From Basidiobolus ranarum (taxonomy: Eukaryota): DNA of 20,000 bases. A model generated the notes under the pieces. That model saw only the letters and a list, made by a program, of their open reading frames with translations, made no database searches and had not been told where the DNA came from. Where the stretch lies: positions 54,313-74,312 of the forward strand of contig JASJQH010000002.1 of the NCBI GenBank assembly GCA_040143965.1. The letters run 5' to 3'. Every line of letters starts with the position of its first letter. Position 1 is the first letter of the stretch. This document shows, one piece after another, positions 1 to 10,658 of this stretch. Made by a program: the position numbers and the translations under genes.

Positions 1-1014
1 CTTGAGCTACCAGATGACAAGCTTGTTGAAGTTAAAGGTGAAAAGATTCCCTTAGGTAAGTAATGACTTTTAACTTTTTTTGAGCTGTTATCATCCTGAG
101 GTTATATCTTATTTCATTGCCATATATTTGCAGGTAGAATCGACTTTGCTGTCAGTAACGGACTACCCAGACTAACCATACCTCTACAAACCCCGGGTAC
201 TGGGGAGGTGAAAGAACATAGCTTTATACTGCATCCTGAGCTAACCCTTTCAAACCTGTATCATCAAATTCGTGATCATGGTGGTGATATCAAGCTAGTA
301 CATGTTCATGACTCTTTGAAAAATTTCTCTATCGGAGCTCGGTGGACAGCTGGGGCTTCCATAGACGACTTAATTCAAGAATCGACAATGTCGGATGCAA
401 AATCATTCTATATTATTACCGATGACACCAAAATACTTATTCGCATGCCTTCGTTTAAAGGTAAGCTTCGTATAATATCTGATCTATCATGGAATGTGTC
501 TTTTAATCAACTTTTGCCCTGTAGAACGTACAGCTAGTTTAAACAGTCAGTTGATTAATCTTCAATCTCGTCTTGATGCTTTGAACCGAGTGAAGCATAA
601 GTGCGATGTTCAAGCTAATCGAACTTCTCAGATGATTTCTATTGGTGGCTTTGCTGGTCTATGCACTTACTGCGGGGTCATGTCCAAGCTTGTCTGGGTT
701 GATCTTGGTTGGGGCGGTAAACATCACATCTCCTGAACATCTTTGTTTCTGCGATTGTCTAATTTTGTTCTTTACTAGTAATGGAGCCATTTACCTATTT
801 CTCAGGGATTGGGGCGGCAACCATCGGTTATCTTTACTTCCTAGTTACGAAGCGAGACTTCACTACTGATTCTGTGTCGAACATGGCAGCTACCCAACGC
901 CAGATAAAACTCTATGTCGAAAACGGTCTTAACATTGACCTTTATCAGCATTTAACCCAGCAAGCTAACCGTGTCCGAGAGGAGATAGATCGGATAAGAA
1001 CTAGCTATAATTAA
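1..1014 (+). CDS. MCU: Mitochondrial calcium uniporter (fungal-type MCU), 5' end outside the window. Exons <1-55, 134-460, 525-716, 779-1014.
   Basis: Three GT-AG introns (56-133, 461-524, 717-778) join the ORF fragments in frame. The product has an N-terminal domain (GLPRLTIPL...FILHP...RWTAGASIDDLI), PSFKERT, a coiled coil (KHKCD), TM1, the loop DLGW-G-VMEP-FTYF, TM2 and a C-terminal coiled coil, matching the MCU layout. Confidence 0.88.
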
Positions 1015-1573: not shown

Positions 1574-2803
1574 ATGGCAAGTTTAGATACAAGCACGGGA
1601 CGTAAGAGACCGGTGGTTTCCGATTCGCACATGTACTACTCGTTTCAATGGGAGGTAAAAAATTTTCACGATATAACCACGCGTAAGGTTTGCACTTCGG
1701 AATTTCTTATCATGGACACTATCTGGCGGTTAGAAATCTATCCTATCGGCTATGACGAACATGAGAATTTTGTATCGGTCTATTTAAGACCCACTCGGTT
1801 ACCTTGCCCTAAAGAAGTGGAATTTTGCATATATCTAAAGTTAGACGTTGGATTAAAACGTAAATTGAAAAAATTCACCAGTAGAAGAGTTTTCTGTGAG
1901 AAACAATCGCAGGGATTTGAACGTTTCGTCGATAGAAGGGAGCTTTATGAATTACTTGGTGAACGTGATAGCTTTATAGTTGGTGTGGAATTGTTTTTTA
2001 TTGACGTGAATATTGAGACGGAATTCTCGGACTTTCATTTGAGCGAATCTGGTGTTACGGATATCTCGGGCTTGGAAGCGTTCGATCCGCCTAGTTACTA
2101 CGTACCTCAATTCGAAGACAAACTAAATGATCCAAACTTTAGTGATGTAGAATTTAAAGTAGATGGGAAAGATTTGTACGCTACTAAGTTCCTGTTATGT
2201 TGTAGAAGTAGCTATTTTAGAGCCATGTTCCAGACGTCTAATATGTGTGAAAGCACTCAGCAAACGATTCATCTTCCTGGGTTTAAATACGAGCCGGTCT
2301 TGGCTGTCTTCAAGTATATTTACACTGGCTGCTTCGAATTTGATATAGATGATTTGAAGCCACAAGCTGTTAAAGAAGACACTGAAAAGAACTCTTTCGA
2401 ATATTTATCGGCCGTTTATACACTTGCCGATATGTACGAATTACCTGAGTTATGTCGTTGGATAGAGAGGATACTGGTGACCATAGTATCCATCAAGAAT
2501 TATGATCAGCTGTTACATTTTGCCCATAGATATGAGCTTTGTCGGGTCCTAGCGAAAATTTGTCTATTTGTCGCGAAGCACTGGCTGGATATTCAGCACT
2601 CGGATTCATTTATGACTTTGTTGAATAGTGGAGATGGCCCATTGATTCTCATGCTGTTCAATGGAGTTATGATGGCAAGAACCGGCGCTTCAGAGCGAGA
2701 GGTTTACCAGCGTTTACTGGCTAGACGTGACTTGGATCCCAGTGAAAGCTTAAGTGCAAGTAGTGATGATGTTCCTTCTGAATTAGAAATCACTTATTCG
2801 TAG
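1574..2803 (+). CDS. MATH-BTB/POZ protein (SPOP-like Cullin-3 substrate adaptor), 409 aa, coding region intronless
   Basis: MATH motifs FQWEVKNF, WRLEIYPIG, FVSVYL and QGFERFV. BTB motifs FSDVEFKVDG, LLCCRSSYFRAMF, YIYTG and LADMYELPEL, followed by BACK-like helices. Confidence 0.9.
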   Translation: MASLDTSTGRKRPVVSDSHMYYSFQWEVKNFHDITTRKVCTSEFLIMDTIWRLEIYPIGYDEHENFVSVYLRPTRLPCPKEVEFCIYLKLDVGLKRKLKKFTSRRVFCEKQSQGFERFVDRRELYELLGERDSFIVGVELFFIDVNIETEFSDFHLSESGVTDISGLEAFDPPSYYVPQFEDKLNDPNFSDVEFKVDGKDLYATKFLLCCRSSYFRAMFQTSNMCESTQQTIHLPGFKYEPVLAVFKYIYTGCFEFDIDDLKPQAVKEDTEKNSFEYLSAVYTLADMYELPELCRWIERILVTIVSIKNYDQLLHFAHRYELCRVLAKICLFVAKHWLDIQHSDSFMTLLNSGDGPLILMLFNGVMMARTGASEREVYQRLLARRDLDPSESLSASSDDVPSELEITYS

Positions 2804-7320: not shown

Positions 7321-8577
7321 ATGAGAGGCCAGGATAAAACCCAACGAAAAGAGCGGCATCGAGGGCAAAGTTTGAAGGATAGAGAGGAGGCTTTGAAAAT
7401 GTATACCTCACAGGTGCTTCTTTACATTTTTCAGAAAATCTAAATATCTACCTAACGAAATCTACATAGATATCGGATCCTTTAGGAGAATATCGACTCT
7501 TCATGCAACGACTTCGCTCCAACGGTGCAGCTACTGAAGATTATACACACATCCCTCGAAACCTGATAGGTATATGACATGTTATGAATACTTAGAAATA
7601 CTGTTCGTAAGAGATTTAACTGTAGTTTGAATGATTTAGACTTGGCAGTCGTTCTGATTGCTTCCATCGTTGCTAGAGATAGCTTTCTCTTACCTCGCAC
7701 TCGCTCGATTGGCGATCCCATCAACCATTCCATCAGGATTAACCACACAGCCAGGAAGTTCATTCGCAAAGTTTTGGGTTTAACCCAGCTCTCGTGTACT
7801 AGCTTAATCCTTAGCTTGTTCTTCGCAGTAAGATTGCAACGTGAATCAAACCAGGTATACCAGACATACAGAAAGAGCAAACATCGCTTTTATAGTACTT
7901 GTGGTAAGAAGCAGTCATCCGATATGAGTGAGCTAGATAAAACCGAAGGATGGACTACGATCTCTATGTTTTTAGCGTCAGTTATTGTTGCCGATAAATA
8001 TCTTTCCGATATTACATATACAAATAAGGATTGGGTGGACTTTACGCGTGGTAAATATACTCTCCTTGAGATCAATGAAATGGAAAGGAGGTTTTTGTCT
8101 CAGTTGAATTATAAACTTTACATTACGGAAGAGATGTATGAAGCATTTCTGTCGTACATTGAAGTGGCTCTAAGTCTAAACCAAATTGCTGGACGTGATA
8201 CGCTAACGTACAAGGATCTATCCTTACTGTCTCAATCTTTATTACCTGAATACGTCACTCGCCTGGATCTGTCATTGCGTCCCTTGGATGCTATAGTGCT
8301 TATGAGCAAAATGCTTAGTATTGTCTGTTTATGCTATGTTGCTGTGGTTGGCATTTTAGTTGGTGTAATCGCTAATTGTCTATATGGTGACAGCATTCAG
8401 AACTGTTCTATCAATAGTCATCCAATGAGCTCAAGATCTTCTTTAAATCACTCATACTCTAGCCATCAACAGCCATTCGTTACAAAGCAATCGTTAATCT
8501 GCACGCTCAACAACTTATCTGTTCCTTCACGAGCACTTGATAAACACACTATATTTGAATATCTCTTTTCATTGTAG
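7321..8577 (+). CDS. PHO80/Pcl-type cyclin with a C-terminal hydrophobic helix (CNPPD1-like), about 376 aa. Exons 7321-7413, 7470-7569, 7640-8577.
   Basis: Cyclin box FLASVIVADKYLSD..YTNKDW..EINEMERRFLSQLNYKL, then TYKDLSLL and the hydrophobic stretch MLSIVCLCYVAVVGILVGVIA. Two GT-AG introns link the upstream ATG in frame. Confidence 0.82.
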
Positions 8578-8795: not shown

Positions 8796-9955
8796 TTACT
8801 CTTTATCCATTTCTATAGTTGCGGTGCCTCCCAAATCCGTTGATAAGGCAGAGGCCACAGCTTCAAGTTCTTCTAAAATTCTATCATTCTCTGTGGTATC
8901 CTCTTCTTCGTCTTCTGGTAGGGTAGACGCTGTGGCAATAAGTTCCTCTACATTTGTTATTTCCGCCATTTTTTCCTCGACTGGTTTAGGGATAATCTCT
9001 TTGGGGATTTCGTAAGTTGAACTTACGTCTTCACTGACCACGGTGATTCCCTCAGGTCGTTGAGTGTACACCTCAATGGTTGGGTACTCAATGATGGTTT
9101 TGTGAAAGAGAGAATCTTGAAGGGGTTTATCTAACGAGAGTTCCCAGTATTCTTTACGAGTAGCCTAGAATTTTACAACAAATGGGTCAACGATTCATAT
9201 CACAATATGAAATATTCAGAGATAAAAATACTTACTGGAAGGAATGGAACTCTCATCAAAAGGATCAAAGAATCTAAAGGAGCACTGGCGTAGGTAGTCA
9301 ATTTCGTGAGATTCAAAAGATTATCAGGTCGATTCTCAAGATGGTTCGTTAATAATTCCCGAAGTGTTTTATTCTCGGGTGCACGAGAATCCGTTAAAGT
9401 CAAGTTACACTCGTTGAAAACCCAATCAACAGTCCAATGAATCTGTTTGAGTTTTGTGTGCCAAATACTCTTGTTACACGTACGACGCTTCATGCCTTGA
9501 GACATTCTCGATAGTCTCACACCATGTCGTTTCGCGTTGCTAGCCAAAAGATTATTCCGATGGGCACCACGACGTGCCTCAGAGTTTAACGATAAATTCT
9601 CTCTAGCTGCGTTATCGGTTGTTCTCGAAGTTTCTTCTAAGAATACATAGTCTACCGTTGAAAAAGATTTCTTAGTATTGAATTGACAAACTGAAGGGAA
9701 AGGTACTTGTGGAGACTTACCACTCATCATGTTATTGTAATCGTATTGGTTTAAACTAATGAAATGGTTTTTTGAACGTTCACCGGAACAACCGGTTTCC
9801 GCCTTGTGTTGTTTTGAGCAATTTAAAGAACAAGTTTTTAATAGGCACCTAGGGCATTTGTACTTCCAAGTATTCTCCTTACAGTATTCGCAAAGTTGAT
9901 TATTTTCTTCCTTCATATGCAAGGTATTTACAGGTTCAGGTTTTGGTGAAGTCAT
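8796..9955 (-). CDS. BCD1: Box C/D snoRNA biogenesis protein Bcd1/ZNHIT6 (zf-HIT), about 339 aa. Exons 9955-9721, 9651-9236, 9164-8796.
   Basis: zf-HIT CEYC..KYKCPRC..TCSLNCSKQHK..GCSGER. The motif MMSDYVFLEE is restored by removing the in-frame 69-nt intron. Also GMKRR..NKS, IHWTVDW, KTIIEYPTIEV and an acidic tail. Confidence 0.92.
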
Positions 9956-10097: not shown

Positions 10098-10658
10098 TTA
10101 TAAGTAAATTTTATACTTGTATTCATATAGCATGGTATGCCTCTTTTCATGGTTTGTAAGAGCCAGCTTTCGGGTGAATGTTTTCGTGCAACTGAGATGC
10201 GTACACACGTACGGTCTAACACCAGTGTGGATTTTTTTGTGACGTGCTAATGAGGAGGACTACAAAATATCAGTTGTATTCATAAACCAATCATTTAGTG
10301 ACGATCTCGTTTTCAAACTTACTCCGCCAAAAGTCTGAATACACTCTGGATACTTGCATTTGTATGGTTTCTCTCCAGTATGAGTGCGGACATGCACATT
10401 GAGAGCTGAGCGTTGAATAAATCGTTTGTCACAATGGCCGCAACTGAATGCTTTCTCTCCTGTGTGAACGCATATATGTCGGAGCAGTTCTGAGTTGCGC
10501 TTAAATCTTTTTCCACACTCAGGCCAAGTACATTCCACTTTGCGTGAGTCAACACCAATACTCTTGGATCCTTGTTCAGCTGAATGAAAATCCAGCGGTG
10601 GGTTTGAGTTTAGAATCAAGCTTAAATCCATATAAGATAGAATAGCCCAGTCGTTCAT
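10098..10658 (-). CDS. Small C2H2 zinc-finger transcription factor with 4 fingers, about 165 aa. Exons 10658-10323 and 10259-10098.
   Basis: Fingers CTWPEC..HICVH, CGHC..HVRTH, CKYPEC..(intron)..[11 protein letters not shown] and CTHLSC..HEKRH, with TGEK/TGEKPY/TGVRPY linkers. GT-AG intron at 10322-10260. Confidence 0.9.

Follow-up and report, generated by a model that had tools for sequence, protein, structure and literature searches.

A paralog of the mitochondrial calcium uniporter in Basidiobolus with glycine in place of the outer filter aspartate

Mitochondrial calcium uniporter (MCU) channels carry the filter sequence W-D-x-x-E-P, known as the DIME motif, in which a ring of Glu residues forms the high-affinity Ca2+ site and a ring of Asp residues forms an outer site that contacts Ru360 and MICU1. 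We refer to these two positions as the E-locus and the D-locus. Here, we describe an MCU-family gene of Basidiobolus ranarum, a soil and gut fungus, with Gly at the D-locus. The last four exons of this gene occupy positions 1-1014 (+) of a 20,000-nucleotide stretch of contig JASJQH010000002.1 (GenBank assembly GCA_040143965.1, positions 54,313 to 74,312 of the forward strand), which we call the window, and its 5′ part lies upstream of the window.

What the D-locus does is disputed in the passages of the literature that we draw on here: one group considers it nearly irrelevant to selectivity and conduction, and others found that uptake at micromolar Ca2+ falls 4- to 25-fold on its removal. When each of the other residues was substituted for human D261 in human embryonic kidney (HEK) cells, Ca2+ uptake was supported by D, E, and A alone (Phillips et al. 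2019, PMC6347451). The D261A channel was 3.8-fold slower, kept its selection of Ca2+ over Na+, did not respond to Ru360, and had lost MICU1 binding (PMC6347451). The same D-to-A change in Tribolium MCU-EMRE gave near wild-type selectivity and Na+ conductance, with nanomolar Ca2+ block (Delgado and Long 2022, PMC9757755). A preprint from 2023 puts the uptake of D261A at about 4% of wild type and argues that the Asp ring serves to capture hydrated Ca2+ when Ca2+ is at micromolar levels; it also cites mild effects of D-to-N and D-to-A changes in two fungal MCUs, evidence that we therefore have second hand, and mentions in a single sentence 14 D-locus variants in a sequence library, G included, with no lineage named in the passages seen (10.1101/2023.06.17.545435). 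Animal MCUb is described as keeping the DIME motif and as being non-conductive through its failure to bind EMRE and through autoinhibition by its N-terminal domain (NTD) (PMC13385820). Our literature search found no report of WGVMEP, WGIMEP, or a "GIME motif," and no paper linking Basidiobolus with the calcium uniporter.

Filter reading and identity of the protein

Joining the exons at 716/779 gave TGG GGC G/TA ATG GAG CCA, i.e., W-G-V-M-E-P, and the spliced translation of 1-55/134-460/525-716/779-1014 matched residues 68-336 of the deposited B. ranarum "hypothetical protein K7432_000122" (336 amino acids [aa]; here P0001) letter for letter. The Pfam MCU family (PF04678) matched each of the two flanking exons separately, with family positions 58-117 ending at the Trp and positions 120-177 starting at the Met, so that the junction sits exactly on the filter. 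We then paired every GT or GC donor at 640-799 with every AG acceptor at 700-899, allowing introns of 35 to 250 nucleotides (nt), which yielded 128 pairs. Although 48 of these were in frame and open, a W-x-x-x-E-P motif came from 717/778 alone, as WGVMEP, and Asp was restored by none of the 128. The only GAY triplets in 700-800 are those at 701 and 753, neither of which can be placed after the Trp codon. A preliminary description of this DNA, made from the window sequence, had identified the gene as an MCU, read its filter as W-G-V-M-E-P across the 716/779 splice, and noted that no nearby alternative splice restores the Asp; all three statements were borne out, the second by rejoining the exons and comparing the translation with P0001, and the first by the family, structure, and fold matches given below.

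Whole P0001 scored 102.1 bits against PF04678 (E 5.1e-29; cutoff 30.8 bits). Its best sequence matches in the PDB were the fungal MCUs 6d7w/6d80 (1.9e-29), followed by 6dt0, 6c5w, and 6dnf; over the solved structures, the fungal MCUs matched at 1e-26 to 1e-29 and the animal MCUs at about 1e-13. All of these fungal structures have G-W-D where P0001 has G-W-G. An AlphaFold2 model of P0001, built on a 70-sequence alignment, reached a predicted local distance difference test score (pLDDT) of 83.7 and a predicted template-modeling score (pTM) of 0.70. In this model, the first 68 residues are disordered, residues 75-189 form a beta-rich NTD of strands and helices with pLDDT >90, and helices follow at 198-254 (a long one, running into transmembrane helix 1 [TM1]), 256-282 (the pore helix), 288-306, and 311-335. 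The predicted fold contains the architecture of an MCU, i.e., the NTD, a coiled-coil helix leading into TM1, a short linker, TM2, and a second coiled coil. Foldseek placed 6d7w at the top (E 4e-15, TMt 0.62-0.67), followed by 6dt0, 6c5w, 6dnf, and the human MCU-EMRE complex, with TMt of up to 0.76 among the fungal structures; the top matches were MCU structures only, with 42 matches at E ≤ 1e-3, and the NTD also matched crystal structures of the human MCU NTD (5kue, TMt 0.79).

In the alignment of 70 MCUs, W257, E261, and P262 are invariant, and Y265, Y276, and Y304 are each at least 90% conserved. Position 258 is Asp in at least 90% of these homologs and Gly in P0001, which retains the Trp, the inner Glu ring, the Pro, and the Tyr and is missing the outer Asp ring of the W-D-x-x-E-P filter. 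The acidic residue D254, four positions before the D-locus (the place of human E257), is kept in Basidiobolus. The N-terminal 66 residues, which are encoded upstream of the window, include no Asp or Glu, 8 Lys or Arg, and 22 Ser or Thr, a presequence-like composition. P0001 is, by its sequence, a full-length fungal-type MCU from which one near-universal filter residue, and that one alone, is missing.

Basidiobolus paralogs and origin of the glycine

The preliminary description proposed an alignment with orthologs and paralogs, which showed Gly to be common to the 336-aa copies of two species, P0001 in B. ranarum and P0004 in Basidiobolus meristosporus (both WGVMEP), and Asp to be present in both 332-aa copies, P0003 in B. 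ranarum and P0002 in B. meristosporus (both WDVMEP). P0003 is 77% identical to P0001 over the alignment, and a canonical pore paralog thus coexists with the Gly copy in each species. A third, distant paralog of B. meristosporus, P0005 (359 aa, 37-38% identical), also has WDVMEP; P0023, which groups with it (98/95), may be the B. ranarum copy of this third paralog. Because the ortholog in a second Basidiobolus species also has Gly, the residue is genuine and inherited.

The four close Basidiobolus proteins formed one clade with support of 100/100, and the two Gly proteins paired within it with support of 83/99 (20-row tree) and 92/86 (12-row tree); both trees kept the Gly/Asp column itself, one of about 390. 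Approximately unbiased (AU) tests rejected the species-wise pairing of P0001 with P0003 (log-likelihood [lnL] 22.7 lower, p 0.0025) and the crossed pairing of P0001 with P0002 (p 0.0028). Trees made from each half of the protein (7 rows, with the Gly/Asp column dropped from its half) recovered the Asp pair with support of 91/95 and 90/95 and again rejected the species-wise pairing (p 0.016 and 0.030). In the simplest reading, one duplication preceded speciation, Asp became Gly a single time on the stem leading to one copy, and the Gly has been retained from then on. With P0005 as the reference, only D258G and I281V are clearly derived and common to both Gly proteins, and the same two are the sole differences between the TM2 pore helix of P0004 and that of its Asp paralog. 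On this evidence, the Gly is inherited and fixed in one of two paralogs that arose by recent duplication.

Other differences are confined to P0001. It alone has Y-C-G-V-M-S in TM1 (residues 244-248, window positions about 671-685), where the other three close paralogs have Y-W-V-V-M-A, and its pore helix has two lineage-specific changes, Met271Ala and Val274Ile. Identity of the NTD (P0001 residues 67-192) is 83% between the B. ranarum paralogs, 71-73% in the ortholog pairs, and 66% between the B. meristosporus paralogs, a pattern that we leave unexplained. The 83% value raised the question of gene conversion between the B. ranarum paralogs, a candidate that we rejected on the half-protein trees, both of which exclude the species-wise pairing.

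To place the Gly within the family, we scanned 1.84 billion representatives with HMMER, which returned 775 relatives at E ≤ 0.001, and surveyed the best 150 of these 775. Of 154 proteins, 149 had W-x-x-x-E-P, and their D-locus residue was Asp (142 proteins), Glu (4), or Gly (3). W-x-x-x-E-P was absent from five: P0016, P0023, and P0127, which are derailed gene models, P0053 (R-D-V-M-E-P), and P0067 (W-E-V-M-E-L). The proteins with Glu at the D-locus (W-E-x-M-E-P), P0020, P0022, P0045, and P0060, are fungal-type MCUs, in agreement with the reported function of human D261E; P0067 likewise has Glu there.

P0023, P0016, and P0127 break off or turn out-of-family at or near the filter, P0023 stopping at G-W-D and continuing with unrelated residues. 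They look like gene models that miss a phase-1 intron right after the D-locus codon, matching that at 717-778 in the window, and the derailing of P0023 at this very place fits conservation of the intron site.

The third Gly protein, P0142 (UniRef A0A6B2LFS2), comes from the amoebozoan Arcella intermedia, and it also has a COR-A-like N-terminal domain (Pfam PF16095, E 9e-10). Used as a query, it retrieved 11 environmental relatives (P0155-P0165) at 44-53% identity, and all 12 proteins have D-W-G-x-M-E-P; as a set fetched by a Gly query, they are not an unbiased sample. Once these relatives were added, Asp was found in 142 of 160 filter-bearing proteins. In a 149-row tree, which omits the 11 of 160 motif-bearing rows that are too short on either side of the motif, the 12 Arcella-type proteins formed a clade of their own (starred support of 100), in a starred set different from that of the four Basidiobolus proteins (starred support of 99). 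P0001 fell in a starred set of 65 rows, apart from the Arcella-type set; the rows carry no organism names, and this clade is left unlabelled. Gly at the D-locus has thus arisen at least twice.

The residue two positions before the D-locus sets these lineages apart. It is Asp in 12/12 Arcella-type proteins, whereas the 142 Asp-type proteins have Gly (68), Ser (49), Asn (23), or Asp (2) there, so that the Arcella-type D-W-G looks like a carboxylate relocated two residues upstream. Both Basidiobolus paralogs have Gly at the position before the Trp (G-W-G in the Gly copy), so that the outer ring of the Gly copy is simply gone. A metagenome scan for Basidiobolus-like DNA gave 135 pattern matches and no relatives among them, and a second scan gave 9 loci with 22-26% identity, all of them with WDIMEP.

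Function of the glycine channel and competing explanations

We lean, with moderate confidence, toward the reading that the Gly protein works as a pore subunit while lacking the outer carboxylate ring, lower in throughput and differently regulated, which would tune mitochondrial Ca2+ uptake beside its Asp paralog. The protein would form or join a tetrameric pore in which the inner Glu ring binds and selects Ca2+, and the outer ring, at the pore mouth, would receive no carboxylate from it. Gly-only or mixed Gly/Asp channels would then recruit hydrated Ca2+ less well at micromolar concentrations, and a docking site for Ru360, ruthenium red, or MICU1-type gatekeepers would be missing. Tetramers mixed from the two paralogs, holding anywhere from zero to four Asp residues, are plausible, and they would grade uptake. 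According to published work, conduction can persist without the Asp: D-to-A channels conduct in the human and Tribolium systems, and mild effects are cited for fungal MCUs. The second, Arcella-type lineage, which kept its Gly through what we put as 44-53% sequence divergence, also seems to favor a working pore. The preliminary description had suggested a natural filter variant or a modulatory paralog, which fits the Gly in the orthologs of two species, the canonical-Asp paralog in each genome, and the otherwise intact filter. Its comparison with MCUb can stand only as a likeness in effect, as the copies duplicated within Basidiobolus and the Asp is retained in animal MCUb.

The Gly copy remains under constraint. 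Its two orthologs agree at 207/270 positions of the mature region (77%) compared to 25/63 (40%) in the presequence, and NTD identity is 89/126 (71%) in the Gly pair and 91/125 (73%) in the Asp pair (p 0.78). Counts of unique changes relative to P0005 in the Gly and Asp copies were 7 versus 16 in B. ranarum (p 0.09) and 9 versus 12 in B. meristosporus (p 0.66).

Several observations weigh against a conducting Gly pore or against the simple history proposed for it. In the channel half (residues 193-336), the Gly pair has retained 118/144 identical positions (82%) since speciation and the Asp pair 139/147 (95%; Fisher p 0.0009), and in the stretch from TM1 through the filter to TM2 the corresponding values are 44/51 and 51/51 (p 0.013). 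The greater change in the channel half of the Gly pair could reflect a relaxed need to conduct. The rate evidence is mixed, with no overall acceleration of the Gly lineage and yet a more diverged channel half, and we count it on this side; the idea that the Gly lineage evolves faster overall was dropped, being unsupported by the relative-rate count, and only the post-speciation comparison of the channel half points that way. Since only D, E, and A were functional in the human scan, Gly did not support uptake there. Fungal MCUs include a fungal-specific paralog group, "MCUP," whose role as a uniporter in vivo is disputed (Pittis et al. 2020, PMC7423614). Finally, the 7-row half-protein trees root on the P0001 branch, and the Gly pair is not a clade in them; forcing the Gly clade costs just 1.9 and 1.8 lnL (AU p 0.19 and 0.15). 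The picture that these comparisons suggest is of a gene under purifying selection, with a channel part somewhat freer to change since the species split.

The most serious competitor, which we regard as possible but rather unlikely, is that the Gly protein is a non-conducting subunit, a dominant-negative partner that would poison or dilute tetramers of the Asp paralog, MCUb-like in effect by another route. The human D261 scan (PMC6347451), the presence of a close canonical paralog in both species, and the lower conservation of the channel half and pore region in the Gly pair all speak for it. They are countered by the D-to-A channels of human and Tribolium, which conduct and stay selective, by the mild D-to-N and D-to-A effects cited second hand for fungal MCUs, and by the untouched Glu ring, Trp, Pro, and Tyr. 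In addition, a dead pore would be unlikely to keep its Gly in 12/12 Arcella-type members unless each has a canonical partner, and animal MCUb itself is reported to be non-conductive for other reasons, with DIME kept (PMC13385820). It is less probable still that in vivo the fungal-type MCU paralogs of Basidiobolus do not act as Ca2+ uniporters at all and that the Asp-to-Gly change reflects some other transport or scaffold role. P0001 is indeed closest to the fungal proteins whose uniporter role is disputed by Pittis et al. (PMC7423614), but the Ca2+-coordinating Glu, the Trp, the Pro, and the Tyr are invariant or nearly so in 70 homologs including fungal ones, suggesting a conserved ion-binding pore, and the Asp is kept in 142 of 160 filter-bearing proteins.

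Two further explanations would deprive the Gly of any role. A redundant duplicate heading for loss, intact as a gene yet effectively neutral, would be in keeping with a recent duplication, the loss of a near-universal residue, and the faster divergence of the channel half since speciation; we consider it very improbable given the intact frame (three introns, all canonical GT-AG, and a stop at the same position), the intact B. meristosporus ortholog of equal length (336 aa), the contrast between mature region and presequence (77% versus 40%), and an NTD as conserved as that of the Asp pair (71% versus 73%, p 0.78). An artefact, whether a base-call error of GGC for GAC, an allele private to the strain, or a wrong choice of splice sites, can be set aside almost entirely. 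GGC is one transition away from GAC, and the preliminary description had kept a sequencing error or private allele as its fallback; this was not borne out, since the independent assembly and annotation of another species, B. meristosporus, has W-G-V-M-E-P in the orthologous protein, and the splice search offered no way back to Asp.

If the outer Asp ring is dispensable for Ca2+ conduction in nature, a reading that we hold only tentatively, the Basidiobolus Gly channel would be a naturally Ru360-resistant Ca2+ pore with no docking for a MICU1-type gatekeeper, and the paired Asp and Gly paralogs would amount to a natural experiment on whether the D-locus serves in ion recruitment at low Ca2+ or in regulator docking only. 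A natural, long-kept Gly copy that shares its cell with a near-identical Asp paralog provides matched proteins for a direct test of the D-locus. On this tentative reading, the ring was given up at least two times, by loss with nothing in its place in Basidiobolus (G-W-G) and by an apparent move of the carboxylate two residues upstream in the Arcella-type clade (D-W-G). A motif described as invariant has been abandoned in at least two eukaryotic lineages.

Gene layout and comparison with described systems

All three introns of the gene within the window are of the GT-AG type (Table 1).

Table 1. Features of the B. ranarum MCU-family gene in the window (residue numbers refer to P0001)
Feature	Position	Strand	Description
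Exon	1..55	+	Cut by the window start; residues 68-86, end of the presequence linker and start of the NTD; donor GTAAGT at 56
Intron	56..133	+	78 nt, GTAAGT...TTGCAG
Exon	134..460	+	N-terminal beta-rich domain (NTD)
Intron	461..524	+	64 nt, GTAAGC...CTGTAG
Exon	525..716	+	Coiled-coil helix 1, TM1, and the first two residues of the filter (Trp257, Gly258); Pfam MCU positions 58-117, E 1.9e-9
TGG GGC (Trp257-Gly258)	710..715	+	Gly codon 713-715 at the D-locus (human D261 position)
Phase-1 intron	717..778	+	62 nt, GTAAAC...TACTAG; splits the Val259 codon G/TA
Last exon	779..1014	+	Remainder of Val259, Met-Glu261-Pro262 (GAG 784-786, the E-locus), pore helix TM2, coiled-coil helix 2; Pfam MCU positions 120-177, E 5.3e-12
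TAA stop	1012-1014	+	Spliced frame open up to here

An intronless open reading frame (ORF) of 409 aa at 1574-2803 (+) codes for a protein of the MATH-BTB type, matching BTB (E 4.7e-18) and MATH_2 (E 4.6e-10), and lies 560 bases downstream of the stop of the MCU gene. Further ORF pieces at 7627-8577 (+), 9200-9955 (-), 10260-10658 (-), and 12243-12734 (-) carry a cyclin N-terminal domain, BCD1 and a HIT zinc finger, C2H2 zinc fingers, and a SET domain; these neighbors are ordinary eukaryotic genes with no evident link to the uniporter.

Among the described systems, the fungal MCUs with solved structures (6d7w/6d80, 6dt0, 6c5w, and 6dnf), which belong to the MCUP group, resemble P0001 in architecture and in the G-W-x-x-x-E-P context of the filter, and they differ from it in having Asp after the Trp in all cases, where P0001 has Gly. 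The placement of P0001 near this group is by similarity and not by the tree of Pittis et al., from whose genome table Basidiobolus is absent (0 matches in 5 supplementary files). Animal MCUb (CCDC109B), a negative regulator, is like the Gly copy in being a pore paralog beside a canonical one and in that it could temper uptake by co-assembly; however, it keeps the DIME motif where the Basidiobolus copy has Gly, and the two are not orthologous, the duplication lying inside a clade of Basidiobolus proteins only (100/100). The engineered D-locus mutants of human and Tribolium MCU lack a carboxylate at the same position and show slower uptake at micromolar Ca2+, with selectivity kept and Ru360 and MICU1 binding lost, but they are laboratory forms of animal, EMRE-dependent MCUs, whereas the Basidiobolus Gly is natural, long-kept, and found in a fungal-type protein. 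The trypanosome MCU complex, a hetero-oligomer of MCU, MCUb, MCUc, and MCUd, provides a precedent for paralogs of one organism forming a mixed pore (PMC6143741, PMC6727756); the Trypanosoma cruzi paralogs are described with a WDXXEPXXY motif, and none is reported with Gly in the passages that we cite (PMC6727756). The Arcella-type clade is like Basidiobolus in having Gly at the D-locus with the Trp, Glu, and Pro kept, and unlike it in having D-W-G rather than G-W-G; its Gly is of independent origin, in a separate starred clade among non-fungal MCUs.

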